Source of the DNA: Amoebophrya sp. A120
Lineage: Eukaryota; Protista; Dinoflagellata
NCBI GenBank assembly: GCA_905178155.1
Contig: CAJINV010000007.1
Coordinates: 1,519,341-1,583,340 of the forward strand
DNA length: 64,000 bases
Direction of reading: 5' to 3'
This document shows, in pieces, positions 20,101-62,300 of this stretch (the first letter of the stretch is position 1; each line of letters starts with the position of its first letter). A program made the position numbers and the translations under genes. The notes below the pieces were generated by a model. That model made no database searches. It was not told the DNA's origin and worked only from the letters and a program-made list of their open reading frames with translations.

Positions 20101-23100
20101 CTGGTGCAACTGCGACTTCCTCTGTTGTTCCGCAGCCGTTTTTCGCGTTTCTGGCGTACCCGGAGCAAGCGTCCTCCCCGGGTGACGATGCGGAGGAGGT
20201 GCAACTGCCAGAAGACTTGCTTTTCCAGGACACCAGTCCGGTGTCTGGAAATACGAAAACGCAAGAACAGGAGGATCCGACTGCATCCAGTCAGGTGAAT
20301 TTCTTCCTCTCAGAGCAAAATCAGCAGCTGTTCACGGTTGGACAGCAATTACTAGACAGAGCGGAAGCTGCTTTTGCTGGGAATCATCCTGTCGACCTCC
20401 GAACTGAAAGTGAGATCACGGAGTATCGGAAGCAGCTGAAGACCGTTATGTTGAAACTGCGCCGCGTCTTTCGCAAATTGAACGACGAGAAGCAAGGTAC
20501 TAGCAGCTTGAGCGGAAATAATAGAATCATCTCCGACGAACTACATGCGGTGTACGAGAAGCAGACGCGAGCCATGTACGACGCTTTACAACAGAAATTG
20601 CGGACGGTAAAAGTAGTCTTCAACAACACACCAGCTGTAGTCTCAACGGCAGTGCCTCAAGCTGTGGTTGTGGGAGAACCTGCAGATGACGAGGACGAGG
20701 AGCAAGACCAAAAGGCCCCTAGTGAAGGAGCAAACAGAAAGAGCAAGCAGGAAGTAGAGTCTCACGGGGACATTGCGGACCGAATTTGGCGCAGTCTGCA
20801 TGGCGAAGATGTTCTTGACAAGAACAATGGGAACAAGAACTACTCCACTGAAGTAGAACAACGCCGGTCGGTGGATGTTTCTGCAGGATCATTAAGGGAT
20901 GAAACTGAGTATATGCGGCCGATTTCTGAGTCCCCGGAGCCCCGCAGTCGATTGCACCAGGGCTCCGAATCCGCAGACTTGGCTTCCCGGAATTATCTGT
21001 TGTTCGAGCAGGTCGGACGGGATTCGGCCGCCGAAGCGGTGGCAGTTTCCGCGACGGAGGAAGATAGGGAGCGGATTAGCGACGGAGTAGATAAGGTAAA
21101 ATGCGACGTGTTATACCTATTGCTGCTGAGGCATTTTTGTTTTTCTGACAGATAGCCAACTGTTCGTGCTGAACTAATGCTATGGAATGGGAATCTTGTC
21201 TCTCTACTGCAACTGCATTACTAGAAAAATAGCGTACAACCAGCAAACAAAAGAACTGGTCGGACTGTTTCGGGAAGCTACACATGTGTCTCCTCGTTGT
21301 GTTACCAAGCTACAAGCTCCTTCATCTGCATGCGTTTGCGTTTGTATCGCTGATGAAAATCAACCTGTACAAAATTTGTCGAACAAAACACAGTCCGCCA
21401 TTCTCCAAACTACCGAGTTCCACGGTACGGCGCAAGTGGAACTGGAAATCAACTATCAAATGTAAAAATGTCTGGGTCTGGAAGATTCTGAGATTTGTCA
21501 TGCATGTTTTGCATGACCCAGGATGTCTGTAATGCACGGCCGCGCATCACAGATTTTGAGAGGGCTTTCTGATGCCTCCTCCGCATGACAAACGCCCTCC
21601 CCGCGTAGCACAAACTAGACTCCTCGTTTTGCTGGTCATGCAATACAGATTTTTCTAGAACCCAAAGTTAGCATCACAAGTTCCAATCTTCCAGACCCAG
21701 ACATTTTTACATTTGATATCAACGCGGATGGTACAACCGGGGCGATCATCAGTGACTGGAAATTGACACGAGACCTCACCGAAGGAACGCAAACTGCGTT
21801 AGTGTTCGATAAACAGGCTTTAGGCAGACCCAGATCCGGTACTGCAGGTGGGGGTGAAGATTCCGTGCTATCCAGGAGCATGATGGAAAACGCGATGAAC
21901 CGCACGGAGAGCACAAGGAGCAACAACTCCGCGTCGAAGCGCAGCCGTGGTCAGAAGCGATGGACGGCGAAAGACTTGGAGGACAACTTTGAGGATTTTT
22001 CAAGGGACAATATCACTTTGTCTACCACGTCCTTGCCGAACAGGAATACAACTTCACACGATAATGCTGTTGACGACTCCCCTGCTTCGCGACGCGGACA
22101 ACAAGACAGGAGTTTTAAAAGACAACTGAGCGCCCTGAACAACTCTCCGAAGGTGAAGGTTCTTGTGGGAAAAAATACCAACTATAACGATGGAAACCAC
22201 GATAGTACAGCAACAACTATTCCACCCCCTAATATTATTTCCTCAGAAAGGCAGAAGAACTACTTGAAATTGATGGATTTACGGGTGGAGCTGGAGGAAA
22301 CGCGGGAAAACGTGAAGGACCGCTACGACTCCTATCAGAATGAAAAAAGCCCCCGCCCCATATCAAATGGGAAATCTGTGACGCAGGATTTGTGTACACA
22401 AATGCGCGCTCTCTTGCAATACGGCATCGCAGCCAGATCCGCAGCCTAGGGACGGGCGTTTGAGTCTAGGCGCTTAGCATTACAAACGGCCGTCCTCTAG
22501 GCCCAACAGCATGCCAAATCGCTTCCCTACCCAGATAGCAACAAATGCTCACGCCGCAGCCGTCCCAGGAGCCTTTATTTTGTTGTTGTCTCTCGGTAGT
22601 GATCACTTTGTCCAAACTTATTCTACCTAGAGTTTGTCGAGTAAGTGGCTACCGTTTTAAGGTTTAGAGAAAGACAGGGACACCCAGCCCTTAGCTTCCC
22701 AACAAGACAGACTTGATTTGTGGTCTCAAATAAGCAATACAAATTTTCGGAAGCATGCCTTTTCGATATGGGGAGGGGGGATCTTTCCTTTCGATAACTC
22801 CGTGAAGCAGTTCGCGACGCAGAGTCCGCCCCACAGCCCGGAACGGATGAAGGCGGCGAATGAGTTGCAAGAATTGCGGGACAGTGACTTGAAGTTAAAG
22901 TTGGAGATCACCAAGGTGGACAACAAGTTGAAGGAGGCGGAAAATGTGCTGGACGACAACGAACTCTCGAAGCTGAAGAAGCAGGTCATCGAGCGAAACG
23001 GCGGAAACCTCGGGAAGCAGTTACACCCCTTTTCAGGAGGTGGAACAACTTCTGCAGGTCGTAGTTCTTCTGGTGGAGCAATTGTCTCTTCGTATAAGAA

Positions 23101-26100
23101 TTTTTCCAATTCGGTGAGACCGACTAGAGCGTCTGAATTAAGACACAAAGCGAACAAAGGTAAGGTGGACCACAGGGGCGATAAAAGCAGCTCTGGAGCA
23201 GGAGACGCGACCAGCTCTAATACCGCAACTGCTCGGGACGAACAAGTTGAGAAGCTCGCAGCAGGCGCTGCGCACCAGCAGAGCAACAAACAACCGAAGC
23301 AAAAGAAGAAAACAGCGAGTAAACAGGCTGACGCGCTTGAGCAAGATCATGGCAAAATATTAGTAGACCAAATAGCCCCGGAGAAGGCTTTTCAGAAGTC
23401 GATTTCGCATCCGGTCGGCTTGCTCCGGGGGGTGTACGAGATGACGGAAAACCTGCAGCGCATGGACCGCGAGATTTCCCTCCCAGGAGCGGAGAAACTT
23501 TCCCTCGAGGACGAGCGGGAGAAAACGAAACAGTTGCGGCAGAAGCTCGCGAATCTGACGAACCAGTGCGCGACGTTGTCGGACGAGTTGGAGAAACAGG
23601 CGGAGGACCTGGAGGACGCCACGCGACAGCGGCTGTTCCTCGACGTGACCAAGGCGTACAAGAAGACGATCGAATTGCACGAGCGCCTCAACACGGTGGA
23701 AGTGAGGCGTGCGGAGCGGTTTCGGGTGTCAAAAGTCGTCGAGGAGGCGAGGAAAGAGGCGCTTTCGCTGCAGGAGAACGGCGTGCAACTCCCGCGGGGG
23801 CTTCCGGACGCGGTTTTTAGCTTAGAAAAGGCGGTGCAGCAGACCGCCGCGGAAAATTTGGATTTGGAGCACGTGGAGCAGGAGTCGCAGGAAATTTTAG
23901 CGGACCTGCGCATCACAAAAGCGAAAAGTATGTCGTCCGAGGTCGGGGATAAGGATAAGAAGAATTCGTTGTCCGGAATATTGAACAACATCGAAACCAC
24001 CAGCACAATCTCGTTCGGGTTACACAGCGATGTCCAGGTGGTCAGAAGCAGGTACAGTGAGGAGCTGGAAAAGGAGTTGGCAGGCGAAAGACGAGGAGGT
24101 GGCGAAAGAGCAGGAGGTGACGCTGATGCAGTAGATTATTTCCACCAAGAACAGCTCCTTCCCGAAGTCGCCGAGCAATTCATCAGCAGAACCAGTGGCG
24201 GTGTAAAAACGACGTCCACCGGCGCGGCTCAAGGATCTACTTCGCCGGTGGTGGCTCCAGGAGCTGGTGCTTCTCCTACTGCAGGAGAGGTGGACCGCGA
24301 TCAGCAGATCGCAACTTCCCTGCTTGAGGCGGCGCAGAGACAGTTAGACGAGCAGCGGCAGTTTGCCCTGGAGGACATCGCCGCCTACGAGCGGAAAACG
24401 CAGGAGGAGATCCAGCGAAGAGAGAAGGAGCTGCTGAAAAAGCAACAGCTGTTAGAGCAGCAGGAAAAGGACCAGCTTTTCGAGCAACAGCGCGCGAAGG
24501 AGGAGCTGCAGAATCTGCGGGACGCGGCGAAGCGAGACATTGACGCGAAACGGTTCAGTTTAAGGGCTGAGGAAAAGGAGAAAGTGGTCCAGGAGAAAGA
24601 GGAACTGGAAAAGTTGAAATTTGAGTTGACCGAAGAACAGAAACGAAAAGAGGAAGAGGCGGAGGCTATCCTGAGTAAAAATGTCCCCACCCCAGAGTTG
24701 TCATGGAGATTTGCAATTGCAGGAACATTTGTAATGCGCGTCCCCAAGGGAGGCACTTCCAATCGTGTTTTGGCACTTGTAATGCTGCAAACAGGATAAG
24801 TCGATGGATTTGTGATGCGGCTGTCCTTGCTAATATGAACTACACTACGGACTGCAACTTGTCATGCGTGGCTCCCAAGACTTCTGGAGTTGTGTTGCTA
24901 CGTTCTCAACTTGACGATGGGGTGGGGACGTTTTTGCATTTGATAGAGCGGCTGCTCGCGTCGGCGCGGCGGGAGAGGACGAAGATAGAAGACCAGAAGC
25001 GGGAACTGGAAAAGCAGAAAAAGTCCCAGGACACGAACATCGAGGCGCAGAAAGCGACGTTGCGTTTGCAATTGGCCGAGCAAGAAGCGGCGGCGCGGCG
25101 GGACGTGGAAAGCGCGAAGCAGAAAATCGAGCAGGCTCGTCGCGCGCAGGAGGAGCTGGAGACGGAGAGGAAGAAGATGGAGGCAGAGGTGCAGCTGAAG
25201 CTCCAGCAGGAGGAGGAAAAGGCGCGGGTCGCGCTGGCAGAACGGGAGAAATTGGCGCGACAGGAACTGGAGTCGATGGAGCTGCGGATCCAGAAGGACG
25301 CCGAGGACGCGCGGAAGAAGGTGACCGAGTTACAGATGTTGACGGACCAACTAGCGGAGGAGAAGAAGAAGATCGAGACCGCGAAACGGGACAAGGACAA
25401 CGAGATTCTGCATAAGAGGGAAGAGCTCGATAAGGAGGAACTGTTGATGCGCAAACGGTTGGAGGAGCAGCGCGAGAAAGCGCGCATCGAAATTGAGGAG
25501 AACCGGTTACAGGCGGAGAGAGCGCTGTTGGAGAAGCAGGAGGAGGCCCGGCAGGAAATCGAGGACGCTCGCGCGAAAGACCGCGAGTCGCGACAGGCAC
25601 AGAATGAGCTGGAGCGACTGCAGCAGCAGATCCAGTCGCAGGGGGAGCAGCTGCAGCGGGCCTTGGAGCAGCAGAAGCTGTCCGCGCGCATGGAGATGGA
25701 AGAGCGGGAGGAAAAAGTGCGGAATTTGGAAACGAAACACCAAATCGAGGCAAAGCGGCAGGTGGCGGAGTTCGAGCGGAAACAGTTGGAATTGCAACAA
25801 CAGAACGAACGTCTGCAATTACTCATCTCCGGCATTGATCCCACCGTTGTTTCGGGGTCCTCAGCGCAAGGTCCGGTCGTGCTGACCCCCTCGGGCGGCG
25901 CGCAAGAACGCATTCCCGACGCAGACGCGATCAAGGATTTCCGCGAGGCCTTGGAACGGGAGTTCCCGAGGTTGCGGGGGGACAAAAAACTACCCGAGTT
26001 TTCCCCGAGAAATCTCTCCTCCGCGTTCAATTTTAGCGACTCGATCAACATGACTGCTGGAGTTGATGCTCTAGGCCCTGCTGCAACGATCACAAGTGCA

Positions 26101-29100
26101 GTGCCGATGCAACTAGGCTATCCGACGGACGGCCAGCCGACGTCGATTGCGACCACCCCGGCGGTTTTGCCGATGGAACTGTACGTGCCGATTCTGAACA
26201 CGACCGGCCCGTTAGTCGACCCGGGGGCGAGGCAATCGCAGAACAACCAAAACTTGCGCGACAGACCGACCAGAGCCTTCCAACCGTCTTTGGTCGATGG
26301 AGGTGGAGGTAGTGCTAGCTCCTTCAACCAGCAACGAAGTAATAGCCCACTGAATCTCCAAAACAACCCGTTGATCCGCAACCCGTACGGCGTCTCCCCC
26401 GCCTCCCCGCTGAACCGCACGACTTCTCCGTTTCAAACGCCGTTTCAGAACCCGACTGTAAACAGCACGCATCCACTGTACCGAAACAACAGCAAAACCA
26501 GCAACGGCGCGGGGCAGGAAATGAACACGAGGTCCGCCATGACGCAGCCCCAGCGGGGCGCGGACTTCATCGAAACCCGAGCGGAGCAGCTGCGAAGTAA
26601 CTTGTCAGGATTTGGTTCAGCATCATCTCCCCTGGAATCTGGAGGTGTCAACATCAACGAAATAGATTTATTCGTGCAGCAGCAGCAGCAGGGAGCATCT
26701 AGTTTAGGGGGTGGAAAAATTGCAGACGCGACATCAAATACGAATAGCCCAGGGGGCTGGAACTTCGACCTGAACGGAGCAAGAAGTAGTGCCACTTTTA
26801 CTTCCCAGCATTCCCCGATGGACGTGTTCGATCTTGACGCGAAGACGAAGGAGAAGTCGAAGAAGCTGGACCGCGAGCAGGCCTTGGAGCAGAAATACCA
26901 CCGGTTGCAGCAGCAAGTGGACACGCTCCTGCTCGAGAAGGAAAGCGCAACCCCGATGAAGATCAACGGAGCTGGTGCCCCCAGTGGCGTCGCTTCCACG
27001 CCGCCGTTTTCCGCCACAGATAGGGACTACGCCGACGAATACCCCTTCCGGGATCGGAAATCGAGAAAATCCAGAGCCTCCTTGGGCACCGCGCTTTCGC
27101 AGGGTCGGGTGGATCATCCACGCTCGACGGTAAATTACCCGGCACGGGACATTACGGGGACATCAGAGCTTGTTGCTGGAGCTGGTGCAGTGGTGGTCCC
27201 AGTCGCAACCACATCTCCTTCGCAACCTGGTCAGATCCGTGTCAGTACCTCTCCGTCGCCACCCAGTACGAGAAAGTCGAAGAATCGGTCTTCGCTGAAG
27301 GACCAAGAGCACTTCACCGCGGCGCAGAGGGAACTAGAGCACCACAAAGCGCAGCTTTTGGCCGAAAGACAGGCGTTTGAAGAGGAAAAAAGGCGGCTAG
27401 AAGAAGAGAAGAAAAAGCTCTATCTGCAGCCGTATAACCCCGGCTATTATAACAACCGACAATCCACCTCTGCGAAGTACAAAGGTGCGGCTTTGGATCA
27501 TAGGGTCCCGTTTCAGGATAAGGAGGCAAGGAAGACAGTCGAGAAACTGAGAAAGGACATGGAGCAGATGAAGGAGACGCAGAGGAAAAACGCGCGCGCC
27601 GGCGGACATAAGCTGGAACAGCTCGCCGCCCGAGATCGAAAGAGGGCCTACGTGTCCAAAGTGCAGCAGTTTAACAGCAACGGTAATTCTCATCAACTAC
27701 ATCCTCGAGACAGGTCAATAGATGATAGGGAGCTGCAACAACATAGCAGTATTAACAGACCAGCGAGGGGGTCCGCTGCGACGCAAGTGCTGGAGCCGCC
27801 AGACCAACTACGCGGCTCCTCGAGCAGAGGCCGGAGCACGGCGAAAAATATTAAGGGCAGCACACCTGCACCTGCTCCAGGTGGAGCTGCTACCACTGTT
27901 CCGAACATTCACTCCCGGCTCGGAAAGCCGAACGAGGCTTTTTGGAAGTCGGCGCAGGAGTCGTTTGCCCCGGAAGACTCGAAAATCAAGGAGTTGAAGG
28001 ACGGAAAAAACGTTTTGGTCGTTGCCTCTCCACCCCAAGCCGCCTCCCGGTCGGCGTCTCCCGCCAAAACCGCGTTGCCGCCGCACGAGCGCCTGATGTA
28101 CGAGCGAAGGGTTTCGAAGGCGTCAGGATCGCGCAGTCCGGGAGGTAGTAGAAGTCCTTCGAACAGTAGACCCGCACGGCCCCCGGGCCACGGCACGGAC
28201 ATGAGCTTGAAGAAGCCGTCGAATGTTAAAAATGGCCGCGCGGAGTGGATCAGCTCTTCGTCTGCCAGCACCGATGACTTAGTTCACGACGACTTGAAGT
28301 CAAAGAAGCGCCGAATGCTGCAGCAGCAACGACACAGATCTGACTCCCCGAATCATGCAACTGCGAGTAGACACCGGGAGCGCGCGCCGAGTCCTCCCGG
28401 AGGTGGAGGACAACTAAATCAGCAGGGAAGTAGTAGAACGCGGAACAACAAGGTAAAATCATATTCCGCTTTGGACGAACCAGAGGATGCGGTGCTACAG
28501 GGCACCAAACCCTTGGAGGAACTAACCCTAAGAGATGTCCAACGCCTCGCGGTGCAGCTGAACCACTGGAAAAGGGGCGCCGCGGACGTACTTTCGGAGA
28601 TGGACATGTCGGTGCAAGCCCGCTCGGTTTCCCCGCCGGGTGGAGGTGGAGGCGATCTGTTGAACAGTAATAACTTCAATCGGCAGATGAATCAGTACCA
28701 GATCCGCGGGGAACTGGAATTATCTGCAAGCAACCCCTTGTCGCCCTCCAGTTCCAAGCTGACGACAACCTTTGAGGGGACTCTGAGGCCACATCTTGGT
28801 GGGGAGCCGAACTCGAACCGGGCAGTAAAGGCATTCGGCACTTACGTGTCGTCCAGTGCGCCGTCAGCGGCGCACCCGGGCTTGCTGGCAAAGGACGTGC
28901 GCTTCATGGGGCATCAATTGCCGACAGTGCAAAATCAGGTTCGTGTAGAAGCAGTAGGAGATGTGAGGTTGCAGCAAGTTCAACAAGAACGCAGGAGGAG
29001 CCCCCTGGAACAGAAACTTCTGAGCGAAAGAGAAATTCTGATTCGCGAAATCCAGAACAGCTTGCACGGGAAGACATCCGACGAACTGGTAAAGTTGAAC

Positions 29101-31011
29101 GAATCCGCGAGTAGCAGCATGGAGAGCAGCAGCAGCAGCAGTAGCACCGAAGGTGATCATGGCCGCGGGTACAAGTACAACTACAACCAACCTCACTATC
29201 AGTCGCGGCAAAGCGCTGCTATGGCAGAACAACACTCTCCAACTTCAAAAGAACCTACGGAGAGAATTAGTGGAGCTGCCACAGTTCGTCGTCCAGGGTA
29301 CAACAACCACCGGGGGCTGCACCCCCACAGCAGAACCCCAAGTCCGCCCCAATATCATGGTCTTCAAGCGAACAAACAGCACAACTTTACGCCGGACAGC
29401 AGGCATTTGTACCACCAGGGCTCGTCTGCGGCTACACCACTGAATAGAGGAAGACACGACGACCCACGCGGCCACGATGAGCCTGGTATTAACGCGACCA
29501 CCAACTTCCGCAATAGCAGTGACAAAGACCGCGCCGGCCAAAGACACTATTCCCACACGGTGGCGAGCTACAACAAATCCCACCTGGCTGCCAGGCGCTC
29601 CGCCGCCGAGGTGGCGTTGCCCGATAGCGAAAGCGACAGAGTGTCCGGCATCGACGATCGGGATGATGTTGACCCGATGGTCGTCGTTCCTCCTTACATG
29701 CAGGCCACGGAGAGTTCCCGGCCGAAACGGTTGTCCTACCAAGCGGCCAAACCAAATGAGTTTGGGCGGCTGCCGGACGGGGTCAAAAACCCGCTGATCC
29801 AACGGCCGCGGTCGCAATCGCCGACGTACACCGTGAGAAACCAGCCGCACCCGGACAAGGTCGTTGGCTTGACCAAGTTGACCGTGACGAGGCGAGAGAG
29901 AAGGGAGCGGGTGAACAGCATCACGGAGGCCATCAACAGCCGGTCGGGCATGATCGCGCCGAGGCCACCGACGGCAAGGGGGCACGATAGCCTGTCGAAG
30001 AGCACCCGATCGCTCAGTCCGGGGGAACTGATGAAACAACAACAAACTGTCGCTGGTGCTGGTCATGCAGCCTCGTCGTCCCCTGCGTTCGGGAGTTCCT
30101 CAAAATCAACCCGGATGCCGCCTTTCTCACCGGTGCGGACGCGACCAAGGCCCTTTGTGTTCGCAGAATCGGATTCGAAGGGGGTGTTCGCCGGGGAAAG
30201 CAGTAGCACGACGGAAGTGGATGAGTTACAGAAAGGCAGGTCGCCGATCTTGTGCGAAAATAGCCAGGTGGTCGTGGAAAGAAGATCACCTACAAGAACA
30301 CTAGGAGGATCAGCGGCAGGAGCTGCGCATGAAATAGAAAATCGTGAAGATCACAATCGGGGTGATGATAAATCACTCGGCCCGTCATCTGCAGCAGCTG
30401 CGCACAAGATTCCTCAGAGCTTCTATGACGATACTTTTTCCTGCGCGAACTCCTCAACTTACAGCGGAGGAGGTGGCCGCAGTCCACCTAAAAAGCACTA
30501 CGTGTCGGAAAGAATCAGCCGGCTGGCCGAGCCGAAAAAGGGACGAGGGGTTGTGCCGCCGGGTGCTGCTGGTGAAGAGAAGAAAATAAAGAGCAACGTT
30601 AGTGTCGTGGATCTGGAAGAACATAGTAGCAAAATAACTTCATGCTCGAAGGACAATGATATTGACGGGGATCAGAATCTTGTGGAGTTGTCCGCGACGT
30701 CAGAAATTTGTTCCAACACGCCATCGAGAGTGCTAGATGATTCCTTCAAGACGCCACCAAGGAGCTTATTAGGGGAACGAACGCGGAATGGCAGGGGGAA
30801 AGGGGCAGCTTCTATGAGCAAAAACCTGCATCACGCGAAATCGACGCCACACTTAGGCGGAGTCGTGAAAGATCAATGGTCTGCGCAATCCGAGCAAACG
30901 AAAAAGGACCCGAAGAATTTTCTCCGAAGGGACCCGGCCCGCGCGACGCCGCAGGTGCCGGTAACAAGCACTTACAGCTACCTCCTGGAGAAAAGATTCG
31001 GGAAGAAATAA
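17109..31011 (+). CDS. Giant Ser-rich/coiled-coil protein (~4200 aa if one gene); exons 17109..21095, 21244..21453, 21724..22332, 22802..24664, 24949..31011
   Basis: Three introner removals give in-frame joins EIN|ADG, YDS|VKQ and EAE|RLL. The GT-AG link 21096-21243 is tentative. Long E/K/Q/R-rich heptad region ~22850-25830. Confidence 0.65.
21454..21718. mobile_element. Introner, family A (TIR TATCAAATGTAAAAATGTCTGGGTCTGGAAGA), reverse orientation relative to 58027
   Basis: Perfect 34-bp TIR; DR TCAAC. Confidence 0.95.
22333..22796. mobile_element. Introner, family C (TIR TATC.AAAGGAAAAATCCCCCCTCCCCATATCGAAA)
   Basis: Imperfect TIR; DR ACTCC; in-frame removal. Confidence 0.9.
24667..24945. 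mobile_element. Introner, A-related TIR (..AAAAATGTCCCCACCCCA); removable as GC-AG intron 24665-24948
   Basis: Imperfect TIR; degenerate DR GAGGC/GAGCG. Confidence 0.85.
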
Positions 31012-36665: not shown

Positions 36666-36770
36666 ACCGATCTTATCACACTGTCAACAGAGGGCAGCTT
36701 TTAGTCACGACGTACACGCACTGTTGATGTTTTCGAATTCGTCGCTCTATTTCCACGACGTTTGTTGAAA

Positions 36771-38998: not shown

Positions 38999-40125
38999 GC
39001 GTTTTGATGTTGTAGTTCACCTCCGCAAGAAGTGGTGCGTTTCAATTGAATTTCTTCTACTCTGAAGAGCAAACTACGGCTTACGAGTTGTACGAATTAG
39101 CATTGGAACTGATGGTGGTCAGCACTACTACCCTTTGAAACTTGTTCGTAAGTGCTGCTCTTTCTTAATATGCGACGTGTATTCGTCCCGCTTGTTTTTT
39201 CCTCGACCCTACTCGAATTTGAAACCCAGCTACTCTAAGTCTAAGGTCGTCGTCGTCCCCAATGCGAACACCTGTAAATGAAGATCCACAGTCAAAGTGA
39301 CAGTCGCCGTGACAGAGCTGGGTGGACTTTTTCTCGCATGATTTGCTTTCATTTTTATGTTCTTCTCTGAAATAAAATTCAAATTCTTCGCGCAAAAGTA
39401 GACGGGGTCTTTATTTCATTAGAGCAAGGCGTTCAGTTGGTGCGCCGCGTGTTCAACTTCGATCGTGTAGTCGCGGTGCAACAGATCAATCATGTGTCGT
39501 CAACATCGTTTCTGCGATATCAAGCGGGTCTTTCTTCCTCGGCCGTCTAGGTCATCAAGCTGGCAAGCAAGTTGGAAAGATTATTCTCGTGATCTGGGAT
39601 GTTGCAGGTGATGGGGAAAATGAATCTTCGTCCGTCGCAACACCAACAGTCAACCTAAGTTTTCATTTGGGTCGTGAACAATTCGATCGTGTCGTGATTA
39701 TTTCGCCAACAAAATCTTGTCCTCGACCTCCTGGTTATTTCGTCTTTTTAGGTGGGGGTGAGCAATTAGGACTAGCACTAGGAGAAATCAATAGGTCGTC
39801 AACATCTGCAATTTTGTTCTTGCAGATCGTTTTGTGTACGTCATAGTCATTCCCTTTTGCCATAAGATCGAGGACTCGTCACACATTACGATTTTTACTT
39901 CTTTTTGCCACGACTTGTTGTATCCTTTATTACGTGCCTATCAGTAGAAGTGAAAAGGAAAACAAGGAAACAGTAATGACTTTTTGTTCATCACTTTATT
40001 TAAGAAATTTAGCGATAAGTAGCATGTGAAGGTCTCGCTTAGTTGAAGAGACGAGCATGTAGGAGCTTTTCATAGCATCTATGCCGTAGAAGTCGTTCCC
40101 GGTACAACTATTTTCTTCGCCGCCT

Positions 40126-51100: not shown

Positions 51101-54100
51101 GAGCGAGATCTTGTCTTCCAGGTCTTCCAAGACAAACAAATTTTCGGCGAACAGCTGCTCACCCTGGACGAACAAAAATTGGACAGTATGGGGATCACAA
51201 CGTTCGGCACGAGACGGCATTTGAGCCTGGCGATCCGGGATTTGAAAGCGGATATGGACCAATCCGGGTCAAACAGTATGTCGAACACGAGTTCTGCGAG
51301 ATTAGCCACCCCGAGCCTGAAATCCGAGTTCTCCAGCCGCATGGGCGGTGGCGTTGCAGGAGCAGTACCTCCTGGTGGTGCGGCAGCCAACAACATGATT
51401 TTGAAGGTCGGAATGCACACCGCGCCGAACTACACCTCGTCAAGTGCGACGTCCGCAAACGGCATCCGGAAAGTGGAAGAATCCTTAGGGTTCGCGCCCT
51501 CTTCCAGCCCCAGCCTAAGCACCGTGAATGGCAGGATGAACAACAATGCTGGCGCGCGGTCGCGGTCTCCCGTCGTGGCAGGGGGAGCGACCACAGGTAG
51601 TACCAGCAACAAGAAGCCGGTGCTTCCCGCGGCGAAGATCCAGGGACTCGCGCCCTTAGCGCAGGTCACCAGTCCGCCCGCCAGTCCGAAGCAGGGCGGC
51701 GGCAGCGGAAGAAACTCGCCGGTTGGGCCGCAATCCCCGGTGTCGCTCGTGCCCGCGATTTTTGACAGTGCGGTGCCGGAATTGCGGAACATGTCACCGC
51801 GATCCTCGTCGCCCTTAGCGAAGGAGCGACTGTTAGACTTCAAGCAACCGGTGTTGAAGGCGAAAGTCCTATGGGAGTGACCAACTCGTCCCCTTCTTGT
51901 CATGCAAAATACCGAAGAACCCAGGCCAGGCTGTGCCTCTGCGCACTGTTTCTTTTATGTCAAGCTCTGTCAGCCCAGCAAATAGCACCACACTCCTGTG
52001 CAAATTGGTCATGCAAAACCTGCATTCTCGCTGACGCTTGTATTGCCGTTCATGCTACACAAGTGTAAATGAGCAGAGGGAGCAGGGGGAGTTGTGCACT
52101 GCCATAAGTCGAGTCCCCCTCCTTGAACCCCATCGCGCCGATCAACACAAGCAAGCAAACTATGCATTGCAAATAGGACGAAATGTGTCTGGGTCTGGAA
52201 CTGGAAGGTTGTACTTAATATGTGACGCGTCCCCGCCGTCCCGCAGATAACGCAAAAACTTGCCTATGCCTTGCGCGGGTAGCACAAGAAGTCCTTCTAA
52301 AACAGTAAGTATTTTTTCTCATGCGGGATATGCATAGCGAAGCCCTTAGCCTTACTAGTATAAAATCTGTGAAGATGGGCCTTCACCCTGTATCCCAGGA
52401 TTGCTCGTGGAGAATCCGCATGACAAACTCGTGCACTCACCCGGTCCCAGACATCTTTGCATTTGATACAGACGAAAGAGCAGGGGTCGAGTTCCGGACA
52501 GCGGTTCCCGCGGCTCGCGCTACCGCAAATGGACTGGAACCGCGTCGTATGGAGTGCAAATATGTAGTCTGGGTCTGGAAGAGTGCAACTTGTCATGCTA
52601 AATCTGAATCATGCAAGCGTCTGTGTTGCGTCAGTCTCAGTGCTAGTAACAGCTGTCCACTTTCGGCCAAGTTCGTTGTGAGGGAGTTTCTCATGCACGA
52701 CAGGCATGACAGAGACCTCCTAGAGTCTGTCATGCTAGTACGTCCCGCATTCGAGACCTCGTGGGTCATGGGAAACCTGCGTAACAAGTTGACACTCTTC
52801 CGGGCCCAGACGTATTTGCACCTGATACGTCGCGAGCCCGGACGCGGCGCTGTCCCAACTCCGCACGGACATGATGGAAAAGCGAGCGCGTTCTCTCGAG
52901 CGCATGCGCGCGACGATCGCGAACGCGGGTTCGAATTTCGAGGCGGCGCAGAAGCAATTGGCGGGACATAACGCCACTAGTGCTGCCTCGCCGCGCACCG
53001 CGACGATCGCCGAGACGCGGTCCGCGGCAGTGGCGTCGGCGTCGCAGTTTTTCAAATCCGGCGCGGTTTTATCCAGTGCAAACATGTCTCTCGTCTGGGT
53101 CACCTGGATCTGGAAAAGTAGAACTTGTATCACTTGGCTGGCATTCGTGTGAAAATTAATCGGTGTTGCATGACCAACAAAAGATCGGCGTTTTGTGCCA
53201 TGCAGAAACACAGTTTGATGAATTTCCAATGCGCACTTCGCATAGGCATATGAAAAAGCGCCCAAAATTTTTGCCATGCTTTGCTGCACAACTAGAGAGG
53301 CTGTTGAATTCTGACCATTCAGCATCAGAAGTTTCCAGACCCGGAGGATGACAGATATTTGCAATGCATAGGTTTTAAGGGAGAACGTGGTGCAGCCGAT
53401 TGCGTCGCCTGTGTCCAGCCCGAGATTGAAGGCGGCGTTAACCGGCGTCCCGCCGTTGGGATCAGGGGATATGGTCGGGTTTGTGACGAGCGTCCCGGAA
53501 GGGGAGTACCTACCGCCGAAGTGGATCGGGAAAACGGGCTGGATTTCGGGACTGATGCGAAATATGCCGTGCAAAAGGATCATCGCACTGCAACTGCTGC
53601 CTAAGACATGCTGACATCCAATTGTTCCGGACGGAAATTTATAAGTACAGGGGGTTCTTTGTGATGCAGGTTGAGGCATGCATATGCAAGCAGGTCTGTC
53701 ATGCGAGACTGCAAGGACTTGTAAGTAGGAGTGCGAAGATTCCTTTGCAGTTGATGCGAAACGGAAAGGTGCAAGTCTCGGTTCACGGGGACCAGCCTGG
53801 GACTAGGGAAACGGCGGAAATCACGACAACCTTGCTGGTTCCGGTGACCAGGTCCGGCGCCGCGAGTCCCGGCGCGGTCTCGTCGCCGGTTGGATCCAAG
53901 GGAACAACGGCGGTCGGGGCAGGCACCGGGGTGATGATGAACAAGGGATCTGCAGTTGGGGGCGTTGTCCCTGCCGGGCTGACGAGACCGGTGTCGGCAC
54001 GACCCGGGGCGAAGATATGGCGCTCTCAACTGTTACATTCTCAACTGTTACATGAATTTGTAATGCAACACTGGCAAAAGTGAAAGGAGGAATATTGCGC

Positions 54101-55455
54101 CTTCTGCATCACAAGTTTGGCGCAGATTTAGGTGCGGCTTACGCCTTCGCAAATTTGTCATGCCGGGCAGCTTGATCGTGAGGATGATGATGGTGCTTTT
54201 GCATGACAAACCATGTGAACAGTTGAGAATGTAACAGTTGAGAACGCCATAGAAAAGCAAACCGGCGGCGGTGAGAGGTGGCGTTGCTGGGGCTCCACCT
54301 GCTGTAACATCAACTCGGCCCGGAACAGCGGGCTCTAGAAGTAGTAGTCGTGGCGCGCCGTCGCCGGTGCGGGGGCGGGTTCCCTCGCCGGTGGCGCGAA
54401 GAGGCCCTAGTAGTCCCTCGCCCGTGGCCAAAGCAAAAACACCAACTCCCAGCACTTCTGTGAGCAGTAGGCCGAATATTAAACAGGCGATGGGGAAGAT
54501 GCCGAGCACAGCTCCCGGGACTGCGTTGAGACAAGCAATTGTAGGCTCCGCGTCTAGTAACAGCAAGGCGAGCGCCACTACATTCGCTGCGAGGAGGGCG
54601 CAAGTGAAGAAGGCGTCGGCGAAAACCGCGGCAAAGAGCAAGACACCCAGCTACGCACCGCCGTCGCGCGGCAACACTGTGGGGGCACCTTCTAGTACCA
54701 CTACGCTGTCTACTAAGAACGCAGCTCCTAGTGCCACGACGAAAATGCCAGAGCCGACGCGAACGATCACGGCTTTAGGCACAGCGCCGAAGAACGCCTC
54801 GAAGGGAGAGCAAACGGCTGTGTCTGCGGGCTCCAGCAAAGTTTCTAATACGGGGTTGCTGAAAACAGGATCGATTCTGCTGCCGAGCTCGCTTGTCGGT
54901 ACTACCACTGGTGCGGCGTCCTCGAGGGGTGCAACTACTGGAACAGCGGGAGCCGGTGCACCTCCTGCGTCGAAAAATGTTGTTTCATCTGCAGCTGCTG
55001 TTCCCTCCATGGTGAAAACACCAACTCTGACAAGCACCAATGTCCAGCTGAGTTCGCCACCGAAACCCGTGTTGACGACCGGGAAGATTGGCGGAGCGAA
55101 ATTCCTCGGAAATGCGGTTCCGACGTTGTTTTACGGGGAAGAAGAAGTAGAAGAGCACGTGCTTGTTCAGGATCTTCACGATGAAAAAGTTTTCGTCGAC
55201 GACGAACCCGAAACCACCAATTATACGAATGCAACTGCAGTAGCAGTCGAGGTGGAACAAGAAGAGAAGAAGTTGAGGGACACGCAGACGATTTTGGTAC
55301 CAGCAGTTTCGTTCGTGGAGCAGGGCGAACCTGCTTTGTCTGCGGTAGTGCGGACGATCCGCGCGACGGGGACGCCGGACAAGTCGTCGAGTCTGTTGCA
55401 GCCGGCTGGTGTGAAGGAGGTGCTGAGTAGTTTGGAACGGGGGGCACGCGCGTGA
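48132..55455 (+). CDS. SAM-domain protein with a possible KOW/SH3-like module (~1500 aa, 14 exons): 48132..48598, 48801..48993, 49155..49303, 49506..49838, 49958..50136, 50296..50522, 50714..50860, 51065..51868, 52111..52160, 52474..52547, 52833..53069, 53376..53562, 53762..54015, 54257..55455
   Basis: 10 introners plus 3 GT-AG introns (49839-49957, 50137-50295, 50861-51064) give a continuous 4500-nt frame. SAM: PVADWGVEEVLQWL...FQDKQIFGEQLLTLDEQKLDSMGITTFGTRRHLSLAIRDL. Confidence 0.8.
48599..48795. mobile_element. Degenerate introner (singleton)
   Basis: TAT...ATA ends, weak TIR, DR CCGCC/TCGTC; in-frame removal. Confidence 0.65.
48994..49149. mobile_element. Introner, family E
   Basis: TIR; DR CCTCG. 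Confidence 0.9.
49304..49500. mobile_element. Introner, family E
   Basis: TIR; DR CCCTC/CGCTC. Confidence 0.85.
50523..50708. mobile_element. Introner, family E
   Basis: TIR TATGAATCGCAAAAGT / ACTTTTGCGATTTATA; DR CCGTG/CCATG. Confidence 0.87.
51870..52106. mobile_element. Introner, family G
   Basis: Imperfect TIR; DR AGTCC/AGTCG. Confidence 0.82.
52161..52468. mobile_element. Introner, family A (diverged)
   Basis: GTCTGGGTCTGGAA end and CCCAGACATCTTTGCATTTGATA end; DR CAAAC/CAGAC. Confidence 0.83.
52548..52827. mobile_element. Introner, family A
   Basis: TIR; DR CGTCG; interior homologous to 57718 and 59472. Confidence 0.92.
53070..53370. mobile_element. Introner, family A (diverged)
   Basis: Imperfect TIR; DR GGTTT. 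Confidence 0.85.
53563..53756. mobile_element. Introner, E-like
   Basis: Imperfect TIR; DR CGAAA; join MRN-GKV. Confidence 0.8.
54016..54251. mobile_element. Introner, family B
   Basis: Highly similar to 1168-1406; DR GAAGA/GAAAA. Confidence 0.92.
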
Positions 55456-56350: not shown

Positions 56351-59300
56351 ATGCGATACCGCGATCTTCCGGCAGAAGATGGTCACAGTCGTCCCGTCGA
56401 GTACAAGAACCACGAAGATGCAGGAGAGCCTACAACTTCCCCGGCCAACTTCTCTTGCCTGCAGGCCGCCAGCTCCCGAACCCGCGCCTTTGCGGAGTCC
56501 TGCGTGCAGCAAATCTGGATTTCCGGACGGACCGTTGTCGTTACCGTGCTCGATTGGTCGGAGTACGCGGGCGAGCAGTGCTTCCAGGTCAACGCTTTCG
56601 AGCGGATCGCGCAGTTCTTCCGTCAAACCGTCCTGGACCCAATTTTTCGATGCCTCCCCTTCGCGAGGAAGTTTGTGCCGAAAAAGTTCAGCGTCGCGGC
56701 GTTCCTGATCGCCTTGAACTTCGAGCAGGTCGGCCTGGGCGTGTTGTTCATCCCCTATTCCTACGTTCTGGACGGCAGCGACGTCTTTTACGACGGCGTC
56801 ACGGTCGACAGTTTGAGCGTGTGGTACGCAACGGTTGGGAGTTCCGTTGGAGAGAGGACCACAAATAGAACTACAAATACTCCTGCTGATGCAGCTGCAG
56901 CGCGAGGCGAGAATGCTGCATCGTCGACGAGGAGACCCGTACGTGGCAACGAAAAATCCTCCGGGGCAAGAACTGAGAATGTTGACATCTCACTCGAGGA
57001 CAAAAGTGCAAACCAGGTCAAAGATGCGACAAGATCGGGAGCGCACGACACTTCTTCAGCACAGCAAGATGAACCAGGTGGATCAGGCATAGAAGGAGGT
57101 CGTGTCAGCAGCACTCCCGCGGATGTTGATCATGCAGTAAAAATGCCTTCCCTCTCCGGAATTTTCGATCCAGATGATGTCGACGGTTCCATCAACGAAG
57201 TTGAACCCACTGTGACGCAAAAGTTCCTGACCGAGGCTGGACTCCAAAACGTCACCTGGCACAGCGTCCGTTCTGAACTCTACGCATTGCAAAAATATTG
57301 AGCGGGTCTGGAGGATCGCGAGATTTCGATTTGTCCTGCAACATCTCCTCGTGGACCACGCACGCCATGGTCCTGTGGAATGCACACAGAACCATCACAG
57401 CTTGTGTGAGAGGACCTTGTTCCTCATGCCTCTTCCGAATGAGAAGTCCGCGGCTCTTTGCCTATTTAGTAAGCAAGTATTGATGTTGCTGTTGGCGTTT
57501 ATGTAGGCAACTCAGATTTTTTTGTGATCGAGACTTCGTGTCGTGGCAAGCTGCATCCTGCTGCCAGACCACCCCGACATGTTTGCAAAAATGTATAAGC
57601 GCGAGGGAAGTGCGAAGTTCCGCACCTTGGAATTTTCCGTGGTCGTCGCTCTCGTCGTTCTGCTCTCTATCCGCATCTCCGACCGGCTTTCCGCCGGGGC
57701 GAAGGAAACCGAATGCTTATGAAATGTAAAAATGTCTGGGTCTGGAAGAATGCAACTTGTCATGCTAAATCTGAAGCATGCAAAAATCTGTGTTGCGTGA
57801 CTACCAAAAGTCGTCCAGTTCTGACCAAGTCGGGAGAGAGTTTCTTATGCAGGATATGCATGAGAGACATCGCACAGAATCTGTCATGCTAGGTCCTGCA
57901 TTCCAGACCTCATGGGTCATGGAAAAGCTGCGTGACAAATCGCGCACTCTTCCAGACCCAGACATTTTTACATTTGATAATGCTCGAACATCAGCAACGC
58001 TTGGGAGATGGTGTCCACTGCGACCTTATCAAATGTAAAACTGTCTGGGTCTGGAAGGATCCAACTTGTGATGCTGTCTTTCAATTCTAAGCAAATCTGT
58101 GTTGCATGACCAGCAAGACGAGGCCAGTTTGTGCCACGTGGAGAGGGTATCTCTCATGCGGAATGGGCATCACAAAGCCTTCTAAAAATCTGTGATGCTA
58201 GGCCATGCATTACAGGCTTTGTGGCTGATGCAGAATATGCAACACAAAGCTGGCAGTTTTCCAGACCCAGACATTTTTGCATTTGATAGACCTTCGGCTA
58301 CGCGCGGGAGTTCTTTCTCCAAACCGCGTACCATTTCCTCCTTTTCGTGGACTGCGTCGCCGTGGCGTGTTTTGCAAAGAAAAAAGTGTTGCAATCATGA
58401 TTGATGTGTTGCAGGAGCAGGCCCGGCAAGACGAAGACAGACAACCTTTGCAGTGTTCTTGCACGAACTGCTTGTTTTATGCGTGATTTTTCTTAGGATC
58501 TTCGCATTATCACGCGGAGAAAATTTGTGTTGCTGCAGCTCCAAGTACAACAAACGTGAAGCTGTAGCACTTTAGTTTTCTCGGGATACTTGTTTACAGT
58601 ACACGATCAACTGCTGTTTGCTCAAGGAGCTACGTATGCCCTGAAATAAATTAACCACCCCCATCCAGTTTGTCATGCAAAACATGTAAGCAGGTTCTTT
58701 TCTGCGCTTGACTTTGTCGTGTAAAAAGTGGATGGGGAAGATGGTTGATTTTCAAGGAATACTGCTCTTGGCCGAAGTGAAGGACTACCAGGCGGAGTAT
58801 GTGAATGTGGGGGGAGATGGTGGGGACCAGGTTGGTCCTGGTGGAGCAGAAGTGAGTTCGCAACCTGTACTAGACCGTAGCCAGCAAAGTAGATTTGTTC
58901 AGCAAGATGTGCTAGGTGGAGGTGCGCGAGGGGAGCAGCCATTGCAAGAACTTCTTGCACAAGCGCAGAACAACTACAAGAGCTACAACCAATCTGGCAG
59001 CACGGCGCCTTCCTCTCATCTCTCCCCCACGAGCGCGACTACATCGTCCTACTTCACTATTCAGGAAACGAAACTGTGTTATAGAAGTGCTGTTGGAGCC
59101 AGCGTGGTCTGCATGGTGACAGAGAGATCCCGTTATGCAGATGCTAGTACAGGTACGTGAAATTCTTGAAGGGCTTCCTGGCTTTCTGGCATGGCAAGTG
59201 TAAGTAACTGTGTTCTTGCCTTTTCTGCATATAAACAGTTTTTCTCTCGCATATTCACCCACTCCATCATCACCTCGAGCAAATCGCTGAAGGTATGCAA

Positions 59301-62300
59301 TGCAAAAGCATCGTACTAGTATAAATTGCATTACAAATTACCCCAGCATTACAATTCAAATTTGTAATGCTGATTTACGTTGAGAAAGAGATTTGTAATG
59401 CATAAATGCAATTACTACGAATACGATACTTTTGCACAGGATAGAAGGAGGAATTTGACAACTATGTGTCCTATCCACTGCAAATATGCCTGGGTCTGGA
59501 AGGGTGCAACTTGTCATGCTGAATCTGAATCTTAGTTACAAAAGTCTGTGTTGCATGAGTGCCAAGAGTTGTCCACTTTCGAGCACGTTGGGAGGGAGTT
59601 TCTCATGCAGGATAGGTATGACAGAGACCTCACAGAGTCTGTCATGCTAGCTCCCGCATTCCAGACCTCGGGGGTCATAGAAAACCTGCATAACATTCCA
59701 TTGACTGCTCGTCATGCGATGCACATACAGAGTTTTTCATTTCAAAAAATCAAGAAACAGTGTCACAACTTGCACTTTTCCACCAGATGACGACCCAGGT
59801 TTGGAATGCATATGTCTCAACTGTTCCGTCTGGGCGCCGTGGAATTGGATGTCTTCGTCGGGATTTGGGTTGCGGCGTCCATCCTGCTTTTTTTCCCTTT
59901 TGTCGTGAAATCCCGCGCTAACTGGCTCATGCTGGAAGTCGGCCAGAGCTACAGCAAGGGAGAGCGGGTGGGATCCGCTTTCGGGATTTTGGCGGTTTTG
60001 TGTCTGGTGTACAATTTACTGTGGCTGGTTTGCAACGGTGAGATCTTAGGGCCGGCGCAGGAAACATTAAACGGGGAGTCCTCAGACGGAGGCGGAGCGA
60101 GAACAGGAGCTTTTAAAAATGCGAGGGGGACGCGTTCAGGAGTCTCTCTTTCGGGGCTGCACTATAATCAGCAGCACCATGATATTCTTCGCGACGGGGA
60201 GGGGCTCGAGTACTTCTATCAGCGGGAAATGATAACGACAACCAGCAAGAACGCTGCGGCGAAAATGAAGATGCACGACCAAAATTACTACAGCCACGGA
60301 ACTACAAGCCGCAGCGGGTTGAAAAAAGATTTCTGGGCGATGGATAGTACTACTACTGCTGGTGCCCCCTCGCAGCTGATGTCCGCCGCCACAGCTGCTC
60401 CGTTATTTGTCTTGCAGCTACAGGAAAATGATCAAAATAAGACTCAAGGGCTTCGGCGTTCCGACGATTATAATTCCGATAATGGTCCTCGTCCTGGAGC
60501 CAGCTCCAGCACGAGAACATCTGACACCTCAACCACAGTGGCCTTCCGCACTTACTCGAGAAGCATCTTCGAGCAAATCCACACCGTGGTGGAGCTATGC
60601 ATTGCCAAAGTATCATACTCGTATGATAAGTTGCAGCGATGCATGACAAATCTAAGTCCTTAACTTTTCCAGCATGACAAATTGCATATTTTCTTCTTGC
60701 AAAAAAAATTTATTGTGATGCAACTTATACTAGTACGATACTCCTGCAATGCATAGAAGCAAATGGTCCAGGCTTTCGACAAGACTTACAAGACCGTCAA
60801 GCACCAGGCGCTCCGGTTCCGCGGGTACTGTTTGGGCATTTCCCTGCTCTTCTTCAGTTTCTTCGTGAACCATATGCATTGCAAAAGTATCGCACTCGTA
60901 TAAATGCATTGCAAATGTCCTCAGCATGAGAAATAAAATCTGCACTGCGGATTTACCTTGAGAAAAAACTTTGTAATGCATGATTGCAATTACTACGAGC
61001 ACGATACTTCTGCACAGGATAAACCACTTGGAGCTACCGTTCGTGCTCCGGCACCACCCCGTCGGGGACCAAGTGTTGAAATACGCGCAGCGACTGTCCT
61101 TCGTCTGGAACTTGGCCATCGGGATCGGCTTGGCCCAGGTGAAAAAGAACCCGAACCTGTTACTCCCGACCAGCTGGGTCTTTTGCCGGCTGTACCTGAT
61201 TGTCGCGCTTTTTTTCGCTTTGGGGACCAATTTACGGCGGCTGCAGATTTACCTCTTCATGTCCATCGCGAACCTGTCCAAGTGGTTTCTAGTCCATATG
61301 ACGCGATCCGCTGTTACAATGTCAAATACAAACGTTACTACAATAGAGTCAGTCTGGAACAATAATCTGTCTTGTGTGATCAGCATGACAGAGTGTAGCT
61401 CTACCGCTTGTATTTGCAATAAAAGTTTCTCCAGATTGATTATCATGCGGTTTGGGACTCCAGAAGAACTTGTCTGTCATGCGTACTATTCCTGTCAGAG
61501 TAGGCCAGATCTTCGTGCACTTTTTGCGTCACAGATTTTCATAGCTATTGCAACGTTTGAGAATTACAATTATGTGATTGTATTTGTAACAGGTGAGCAG
61601 GTTATAGTCCAGTACGAGAAGCGGACGGGCACGAGGGTGGTGGACGTCAGAATACCGAACTTTGAAGAACTATGGGGGTGTCAGGATCGAAATCCGCAAA
61701 ACTGAAATAATCTGTAATCGTAATGCAAAAGAGCGATACCAGCTGGAGCCCAGTTCGTTAGTGGCACATGACAAATTTTGGCAGCACGGAAATCCAATTT
61801 GTCATGCTGTTTGAGCAGAGAAGACTAGACTGCTTTTCTCATGCTATTTTAGCAGCTCTATCTCACACCCCAAAGAGGGTTATAATCGGCCTCAGATGCC
61901 TGCTCTGCAAGACAGGCACCTTGCGTCTAGCATTTCATGCATCACATCAAACTATAATTTCAACTTTGACGATTTCAATCCTGACACTCCCATAAGAACA
62001 GTTTTTTGACGAGGAAGATGTAGCCGCGAGTGACCTTCTTTTCGAGGAAGAAGTTGTAGAAACTGGTTTTACGAGAAATCCGCTTTACCCGACGAGCAAG
62101 GAAGCAGTTTCGCAGAGTCTGCAACAACCACTGCTCTCGCTATCAAAGCCGTACGACGCGGGAAGGATTTTTGAAGATGTCGCGAGCAAAAGATCGATGG
62201 TGCAAGGTGAACAGGAGCCACGACCAGAAGGTGTACCACATGAAATATTAAGACCACGAGGAGCTGGACGATCAATAGCCGCTCCTTCTTCAGTAGCACC

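Follow-up and report, generated by a model that had tools for sequence, protein, structure and literature searches.

Introners of one family interrupt coding sequence of the plankton parasite Amoebophrya sp. A120 in both orientations and, whichever way they lie, appear to be cleanly excised from the message. We favour, with modest confidence, a view in which these MITE-like elements are removed by a polar machine that reads their ends, most likely a derived U2/U6 spliceosome. Clean excision both ways is likely to reflect mirror-image ends that hold the entire signal. Earlier work had already described the elements, proposed the hairpin and reported either-orientation introners as such; how tens of thousands of non-canonical Amoebophrya introns are removed is a question posed in Farhat 2021 (PMC7789003), cited here for its main text and searchable supplementary text. 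Orientation neutrality argues that the element interior holds no polar signal and that the code is confined to the mirrored ends, and mirrored ends as the sole code narrow the range of mechanisms for Amoebophrya splicing.

Elements, host genes and orientation

The window is the whole stretch of DNA analysed here (64,000 nucleotides). Its exon at 59818-60594 is 100% identical to an NCBI Amoebophrya A120 protein, which matched the window with zero mismatches and one 20-residue gap, and the window elements are the non-canonical introners published for this organism (Farhat 2021, PMC7789003). According to that paper, the inverted repeats of A120 introners start with TAT followed by seven variable bases and at least three A, and the borders carry direct repeats of 3-5 nt (5 bp according to the Fig. 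S19 legend); introners of A120 and A25 are ~240 nt long, form hairpins, have non-canonical splice sites and lack an internal transposase. The window elements group into repeated families by interior similarity. They are 127-464 nt long, lack an internal transposase and contain stops throughout, in all three + frames in all but three of 32 elements. The TSD matched at 5/5 positions in 19 of 32 window copies and in none at 6-8 bp; in related loci a 5-bp TSD was present in 296 of 365 cases.

Removal of the elements opened long ORFs on the + strand and none on the - strand. The preliminary description had placed all host genes on +, which holds for the readable hosts, whereas element 7346 lies in no clear host frame on either strand. 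The host genes considered here are:

17061..31011, + strand: host gene of 21454, 22333 and 24667; ~4200 codons, with a canonical GT-AG intron at 21096-21393
40090..42505, + strand: host ORF of 41457 and 41784; 656 codons with both removed
57594..64000, + strand: host gene of 57718 to 63029; hydrophobic stretches make a membrane protein likely

A Pfam scan of 21 exons returned just a SAM domain and a sub-threshold bZIP match, so that no domain could be traced across a junction; the scanned exons of the 57594..64000 gene matched no Pfam family. For the host of 21454, a length-limited search gave no homolog and an unlimited one a single protein; the protein search for the 41784 host gave no match. 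The following elements were used:

21454..21718: family A introner, minority orientation; perfect 34-nt TIR, 5-bp TSD; inferred intron 21453-21722; fold z -10.0
58027..58288: family A introner, majority orientation; inferred intron 58026-58292; fold z -7.7
41784..41940: family E introner, opposite to 60873; TSD 4/5; inferred intron 41783-41944; fold z -4.6
60873..61021: family E introner; inferred intron 60872-61025; fold z -4.1
57718..57979: family A, oriented as 58027 (alignment); P0002 colinear
59472..59812: family A, oriented as 58027, 3' arm degenerate (alignment, removal test)
52161..53370: three family A copies (52161-52468, 52548-52827, 53070-53370), oriented as 58027 (alignment, removal test)
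59294..59443: family E, oriented as 60873 (alignment, removal test)
63029..63183: family E, opposite to 60873 and 59294 within the same restored ORF (ORF restoration)
48994..49149: family E, oriented as 41784 (alignment, removal test)
50523..50708: family E-like, oriented as 60873 (alignment, removal test)
60596..60755: family E-like, weak forward match to 48994 (score 52); junction in P0001
24667..24945: introner with TSD copies mismatched at positions 4 and 5; sets the cut register to 1+4 via the P0003 peptide
46789..47013: introner weakly related to 54016 and 41457 and lying in the opposite orientation; an RNA-type contig (X7 record 11) skips it
54016..54251: family B introner; its predicted joint is where an RNA-type contig piece ends
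58371..58588: degenerate introner without predicted end pairing; removal still gap-free against P0002

Global alignment of 21454-21718 with the reverse complement of 58027-58288 matched 213 of 265 columns (score 371; forward 217), and that of 41784-41940 with the reverse complement of 60873-61021 matched 126 of 157 (score 215; forward 118). The comparison was repeated with 35 nt cut off each end, so that the TIRs cannot account for the match, and with 100 shuffles as null. Trimmed reverse scores were 219 for the first pair (z 55; forward 46) and 98 for the second (z 30; forward 30). Both inverted pairs named previously were thus confirmed, and the strings quoted for the first are present in the sequence.

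As a stand-in for a genome-wide count we used 137 related loci from a metagenome scan (23 of 64 parts), a single sample of unverified species in which the listed loci share one assembly prefix. With 130 of 226 elements assigned, orientations were 50:33 in family A, 16:11 in E, 6:2 in B and 7:5 in F; looser filtering here superseded a first, over-strict count (42 of 322 elements; A 10:4). Including the window copies, family A stood at 56:34 (p 0.026), so orientation is not perfectly neutral. Along the family A similarity network it was random: 43 of 83 copies had a nearest relative of the same orientation, against 43.2 expected, and opposite copies were up to 95% alike. These numbers bear out the claim that one family occupies coding sequence both ways, with orientation near neutral. 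Precise removal was better than both shifts in 31/34 and 19/24 family A copies of the two orientations. Conservation of the two family A halves depended on orientation marginally at best (p 0.044, one zone out of four), and in family E the difference was reversed. An orientation count relative to the host gene was not found for Amoebophrya in the main text and searchable supplementary text of Farhat 2021 (PMC7789003).

Precise removal and the cut register

Excision of an element together with one duplication restored ORFs, the longest of 2936 codons, and for 27 of 34 window elements precise removal did better than removals shifted by 1 nt and by 2 nt alike. The 21454 junction was exact in protein P0003. 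At 58027 the joined sequence aligned gap-free to the homolog P0002, precise removal giving the best score, and the 60873 junction was present in P0001 and P0002. For 41784 the reading frame alone testifies, with 186 open codons on the shorter side vs 38 and 35 for shifted removal. The annotated proteins contain errors; P0001 is without 20 residues present in P0002. We infer RNA-level removal at all four sites, and the earlier statement that the family is removed in either orientation stands for 21454, 58027 and 60873 on joined proteins and for 41784 on its frame.

Contig pieces of run X7, which is only guessed to be RNA, stop at predicted joints. The joint table was dominated, among the joints listed, by X1 repeat-to-repeat joints. 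The raw RNA runs X9 and X10 contributed 213 and 5 reads, of which nearly all lay on elements at 90-95% identity; they leave the locus uncovered and are therefore silent either way. Cryptic in-frame GT..AG splicing was considered as a general route and rejected: pairs at most ~15 nt from the ends occurred in 18/32 copies at scattered offsets, and removals 3 or 6 nt longer or shorter scored worse against P0002 at the three sites tested.

Over positions 1-16 the end profiles of 244 elements were mirror images, with frequencies of 0.95-0.99 for the initial T, A, T and of 0.90-0.94 for A in positions 11-13, in a set whose detector favoured such ends; window elements terminated in TA..TA. At 24667, the site with mismatched TSD copies, only register 4 of 6 (s=4) yielded the P0003 peptide. 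Five X7 contig-piece ends coincided with predicted joints, and two of these require s=4 or 5. This decisive site, four compatible ones (the two X7 ends needing s=4 or 5 and two weaker) and the published table point to a 5' cut 1 nt ahead of TAT and a 3' cut 4 nt beyond ATA as a general rule. In Table S4 of Farhat 2021 the nine predominant A120 splice pairs all start N-T and the nine A25 pairs T-T, the A25 inverted repeat beginning TTA (PMC7789003), so that the spliceosomal pattern of U at +2 and A at +3 would result from two different TIR types. Under the 1+4 register U +2/A +3 was found in 151/151 elements, partly by construction of the detector, and Table S4 supports it independently. The register is implicit in the direct-repeat description and Table S4 but, in the text cited, is not stated as a rule, and the border position is called 'unknown' (PMC7789003).

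At the inferred register the +1 base was free (AT 42, GT 41, CT 38, TT 30) and the 3' dinucleotide was not fixed (AG in 14/151). A GT/GC/GA-AG or AT-AC pair existed at any register in only 4 of 32 window copies, which as a set lack the GT/GC..AG ends of U2-type introns. Under three definitions, branch-point motifs near the 3' end of the 244 elements showed no strand bias (107 vs 104, 12 vs 7, 4 vs 2); a divergent motif may still be present. No significant polar constraint was detected at terminal positions (2 vs 7, 6 vs 5 and 12 vs 5 deviations), and an apparent 5' vs 3' asymmetry at position 1 (0 vs 5 deviations, n=151) was discarded, being not significant with the looser detector. The symmetric recognition proposed before therefore describes the substrate with its mirror ends, but not the cuts, which are asymmetric. 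A 1+4 cut gives an N-U-A start like G-U-A, so the cutting machine is likely polar.

Machinery of removal

In the mechanism that we favour, the elements, which are MITE-like, have TAT-N7-AAAA ends that mirror each other and duplicate 5 bp of the target, would insert at the DNA level, blind to orientation. Since the ends are inverted repeats, flipping a copy would leave its 5' and 3' signals unchanged. Cutting 1 nt before TAT would create an N-U-A-U intron start, like a G-U-A site with a free first base, and the 3' cut would fall 4 nt after ATA at any dinucleotide; as 1+4 equals the duplication length, the original exon would be restored. Every target and both orientations yielding a clean intron would explain cheap spread through exons. 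The long stem probably helps to hold the ends close to each other but may be dispensable. The catalyst would be spliceosomal: U2, U4, U5, U6 and nearly all spliceosomal proteins including Prp8 are reported for A120 (PMC7789003), and in Fritillaria the spliceosome is reported, in the available part of the preprint, to handle non-GT/AG introns (bioRxiv 10.1101/2025.08.15.670264). Counting against it, U1 snRNA was not detected in A120 (PMC7789003), a 30-nt stem would bury the 5' site, and the +1 base is free, with neither a fixed 3' dinucleotide nor a strand-biased branch motif.

The undetected U1 and the unconstrained AG, branch and +1 positions favour instead a non-spliceosomal, stem-measuring pathway as proposed for Euglena, which we regard as possible although clearly less probable. 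Here paired TIR ends would be recognised, an endonuclease would cut at distances of 1 and 4 nt from the base of the stem, and the exons would be joined by a ligase, perhaps with release of a circle; this is the idea of the preliminary description plus an asymmetric register. Compared with shuffled sequences, the four named copies fold much more stably (z -4.1 to -10.0). Among 60 of the 244 elements sampled, mean MFE was -93.5 sense vs -93.3 antisense, and at least 8 of 16 terminal pairs formed in 53/60 and 54/60 on the two strands. The Euglena code is likewise a paired motif with unequal spacers (3 nt, 5-6 nt), genetically tested (PMC12501133), and excised Euglena introns are reported as circles (PMC11282704). 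However, mean terminal pairing probability was <0.5 in 10 of 34 window copies, including 58371 (gap-free to P0002) and 46789 (skipped in X7 record 11). Complementarity was lowest beside the stem base (0.43-0.73, positions 4-7) though TAT and the A-box were kept, G-U pairs were not in excess among TIR mismatches when read on the transcribed strand (222 vs 213), and the convergence of A120 and A25 on U +2/A +3 is unexpected from a pure ruler. TIRs give orientation independence under any ends-only mechanism and so do not by themselves point to the putative hairpin guidance. Equal folding in both orientations upholds the bidirectional part of the earlier hairpin claim; the orientation finding fits a hairpin-guided excision pathway, yet is insufficient for it. 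The hairpin and an alternative mechanism were already suggested in Farhat 2021 (PMC7789003). That A120 possesses a second, spliceosome-independent mRNA splicing system measuring 1+4 nt from a transposon stem base is a tentative idea. If it did, spacers summing to the 5-bp duplication would make the removal of any insertion, in any target and either orientation, scarless, and a DNA transposase would have its counterpart in a system of tolerance at the RNA level.

Sequence-specific protein bridging is improbable. A binder, for example of the domesticated transposase type, would read the TAT-N7-AAAA ends or subterminal TGTCATGC/GCATGACA-type repeats and position the cuts for any catalyst. The 8-mer repeat occurs 70x in 8258 element bases vs 2x in the window remainder, in both orientations, end motifs persist longer than pairing in old copies, and older copies show a mild sense-strand excess of one form (224 vs 175, p 0.016). 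This excess, however, follows the family A orientation skew, frames are restored at 49304, 50523 and 59058 without an exact motif, and no candidate protein was identified. Subterminal repeats are, moreover, expected as transposase sites on DNA.

Removal at the DNA level (IES-like programmed excision) or toleration of the insertions would make RNA-level symmetry unneeded, and TA-bounded TIR elements with precise excision resemble ciliate IESs; no raw RNA read was seen at the four named junctions, the locus being uncovered in X9/X10. We consider this very unlikely, as contigs of run X1 read through elements 49304-52161, 53070, 53563 and 60596 without differences, X7 pieces end at joints, nearly all elements carry the stops described above, and the introns of Farhat 2021 have RNA-seq support against the genome (PMC7789003).

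Comparison with known systems

In Polarella glacialis and Aureococcus anophagefferens several introner classes insert as introns either way, with a one-orientation bias (bioRxiv 10.1101/2020.10.14.339549). These are likewise TIR/TSD DNA-transposon introns, but they use GT/GC/GA 5' sites with a 3' site from the element or TSD. In A120 a pair of this kind is available, at any register, in only 4/32 copies, so insertion need not favour particular target sequences. TA..TA termini with TIRs are shared with IS3EU/GingerRoot, whose TSD is usually 6 bp in contrast to 5 bp here (PMC10045372); as no transposase was found in the sequences examined, this group is only a lead for the mobiliser. Fritillaria borealis has non-GT/AG introns and a modified U2 spliceosome; according to the available part of the preprint, its introns prefer AG-AC and AG-AT ends and U1 is present, whereas in A120 the +1 base and 3' dinucleotide are free (bioRxiv 10.1101/2025.08.15.670264). 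A review describes the Fritillaria introns as MITE-derived (PMC11282704).

Nonconventional introns of Euglena are also MITE-like, with border direct repeats and short complementary end motifs offset by unequal spacers (PMC12501133; PMC11282704). They use CAG/CTG with spacers of 3 and 5-6 nt, and their 3' cut is followed by a purine; the ends of the window elements have TAT/ATA with 1 + 4 nt in place of the Euglena-type paired motif. Circles are reported there, and the lineage is unrelated to Amoebophrya; the analogy is one of working only. The 1+4 register provides a minimal signature, N-TAT...ATA-N4, of the same form as the genetically defined one of Euglena.

Reverse-complement copies in the window

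Alignment confirmed the preliminary description of two pairs of introners, named here by their start positions, as reverse complements. Element 21454 (21454..21718) and the reverse complement of 58027 (58027..58288) were identical in 213/265 columns, 41784 (41784..41940) and the reverse complement of 60873 (60873..61021) in 126/157. The relation held with the interiors alone (reverse match z 55 and z 30; forward scores 46 and 30). Altogether, this stretch of Amoebophrya sp. A120 contains 34 introner elements (32 and two degenerate ones; 8258 bases) of the form TAT...ATA or near it, flanked by 5-bp direct repeats that agree 5/5 in 19 of the 32 copies and are never longer in register. Two of the families defined by interior similarity are distributed as follows.

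Orientation of family A and family E copies in the window
Family A, majority orientation (six copies): 52161, 52548, 53070, 57718, 58027, 59472
Family A, opposite orientation (one copy): 21454
Family E, one orientation: 60873, 59294, 50523
Family E, opposite orientation: 41784, 48994, 63029

The TGTCATGC/GCATGACA-type 8-mer, a candidate transposase site or splicing aid, occurs 70 times in the 8258 element bases (e.g. 21497-21671), often approx. 40-50 nt in from each element end, and twice elsewhere in the window. The terminal inverted repeat (TIR) element at 7346-7538 left no long frame on either strand after removal and is perhaps located in an untranslated region or adjoins another intron.

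Probable removal from host genes

Precise removal, that is of the element and one repeat copy, opened plus-strand frames of 2936, 1156, 934 and 656 codons; minus-strand frames remained shorter. It was better than both shifted removals at 27 of the 34 sites, the seven exceptions including 58027, where the exons are too short for the test. The protein matching the 21454 host (P0003, 3886 aa, 100% identical) contains, at both 21454 and 22333, the peptide predicted for the joined exons. In P0001, an annotated A120 protein, the sequences on either side of 60596, 60873, 61297 and 61671 are joined exactly. A diverged homolog, P0002, aligned gap-free over 103 residues across 57718, 58027, 58371 and 58635, and gave the best score with precise removal at 57718, 58027 and 60873. 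Protein support thus exists at three of the four named sites (21454, 58027 and 60873); a protein database search found none across 41784, where the reading frame alone indicates removal. A120 gene models are described as derived from transcripts (PMC7789003) and contain errors: P0001 lacks 20 residues present in P0002, and this gap at 60773-60832 probably reflects an intron wrongly placed in the public annotation.

Contigs of sequencing run X1 (run kind unrecorded; even depth of about 25-33) pass through several elements unaltered. In X7, guessed to be RNA, five contig-piece ends lie exactly at predicted joints, record 11 matches excision of 46789 to the base and the depth of record 15 agrees better with the spliced than with the unspliced form. 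The raw RNA runs X9 and X10 left the locus without coverage, X9 reads being confined to 57718-57804. These 213 reads, nearly all of 90-95% identity and with foreign flanks on both sides, probably stem from a further family A copy, whole or truncated, in the RNA library; a one-armed copy escaping splicing would be informative.

Further features of the host genes
17061-31011: gene of about 4200 codons, charge-rich, likely coiled-coil stretches; Pfam gave nothing above threshold, and the protein database one match
51065-55455: SAM-domain protein, about 930 aa, six introners within
46531-46725: canonical GT-AG intron with TACTAAC and CACTAAC branch-like motifs
21096-21393: canonical GT-AG intron, likewise in an introner-bearing gene
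59449-59471, 59259-59293, 57985-58026, 41740-41783, 52112-52160: micro-exons of 23-49 nt between adjacent introners

TIRs neighboring micro-exons are able to pair with a wrong partner (57718 with 58288; 60596 with 61021); the removal machine must avoid micro-exon skipping.

Orientation in related loci

A metagenome scan with the family A TIR, covering 23 of 64 parts, yielded 137 loci (494 kb including overlaps), all in one assembly, with 365 distinct elements. TIR and interior families are those of the A120 window, though families are reported to be strain-specific, and the loci probably derive from a very close relative. Among 278 elements with 400 nt on both sides, at least 100 open codons per side were obtained in 124 after precise removal, and in 31 and 25 after shifted removals. 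A host strand could be assigned to 151 of these 278, among which family A was divided 34:24, with precise removal winning in 31/34 and 19/24. Counting by locus strand, which was unmixed in 52 of 53 loci (226 elements, 130 family-assigned and 96 unassigned), gave 50:33 for A (p 0.078), 16:11 for E, 6:2 for B and 7:5 for F, and twelve locus-family pairs displayed both orientations under one host strand. The nearest relative lay in the same orientation for 43/83 family A copies, no more than chance (43.2 expected), and for 19/27 in family E (14 expected). Including window copies, family A reached 56:34 (p 0.026). Occurrence in both orientations, as first proposed, is real and well supported; the bias in family A across the 137 loci and the window is mild and does not amount to depletion.

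Cut register, mechanism and known systems

The end profiles mirror each other across the first 16 positions. A flipped copy consequently shows the same ends, which alone accounts for the either-orientation finding. Unlike these ends, the cuts appear asymmetric. Where the target duplication copies differ, the product reveals which copy was retained: the P0003 peptide at 24667 results only from four upstream-copy bases plus one downstream-copy base, while X7 piece ends require four or five upstream-copy bases at 48599 and 54016 and two or more at 49304 and 60596. These registers point to an intron start N-T-A-T and an intron end ATA-NNNN. The symmetric recognition assumed in the preliminary description thus applies to the end profiles but not to the cuts. 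As predicted by this start, Table S4 of PMC7789003 lists nine predominant splice pairs for A120, every one beginning with N-T. In strain A25, the inverted repeats start with TTA and predominant splice pairs with T-T (PMC7789003). Despite their different registers, both TIR types would thereby have U at +2 and A at +3, a convergence that we interpret as a vestige of 5' site recognition by a spliceosome. A derived spliceosome reading the mirrored ends would be our slightly favored catalyst. Against a spliceosomal trace, the +1 base and 3' dinucleotide are unconstrained, no polar branch motif was seen in the elements and deviations at terminal positions had no significant polarity.

A non-spliceosomal pathway measuring the stem is a tentative second choice, with Euglena nonconventional introns as closest working analogue. 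Hairpin-guided excision, as originally suggested, agrees with strong folding of the four named copies (z -4.1 to -10.0), alike on sense and antisense strands. On the other hand, TIRs are expected from transposition alone, end pairing was not predicted in 10 of the 34 window copies, predicted pairing was lowest at positions 4-7, and TIR mismatches on the transcribed strand showed no G-U excess (222 vs 213), a test that fixed family asymmetries may weaken. Bridging of the ends by a protein is improbable, and removal at the DNA level still more so.

Exactly these elements were described by Farhat et al. 2021 (29,850 copies; PMC7789003), with inverted repeats that open with TAT and lead through seven variable bases into a run of A, short direct repeats and hairpins; U1 snRNA was reported as undetected and a non-standard mechanism proposed. 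Element class and hairpin idea were thus already known, and either-orientation occurrence is a property of this described system. Our search of the text of openly accessible papers, that of Farhat et al. among them, found no orientation count for Amoebophrya introners. One introner survey admitted opposite-orientation copies (PMC9860276), and a filter for same-orientation copies is described in a later survey (PMC12130899). What the present analysis adds, an orientation count and a proposed signature of cuts 1 nt before TAT and 4 nt after ATA, makes the unexplained mechanism directly testable. Classes of Polarella introners, and those of Aureococcus, are reported to create introns in either orientation, using 5' sites of GT/GC/GA type (bioRxiv 10.1101/2020.10.14.339549). 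Other Amoebophrya differ in having GT-AG introns and U1 (PMC12005148). IS3EU/GingerRoot elements have similar TA..TA ends, but 6-bp duplications (PMC10045372). Euglena nonconventional introns are defined by short complementary motifs with unequal spacers (PMC12501133; review PMC11282704), and Fritillaria provides a spliceosomal precedent (bioRxiv 10.1101/2025.08.15.670264).
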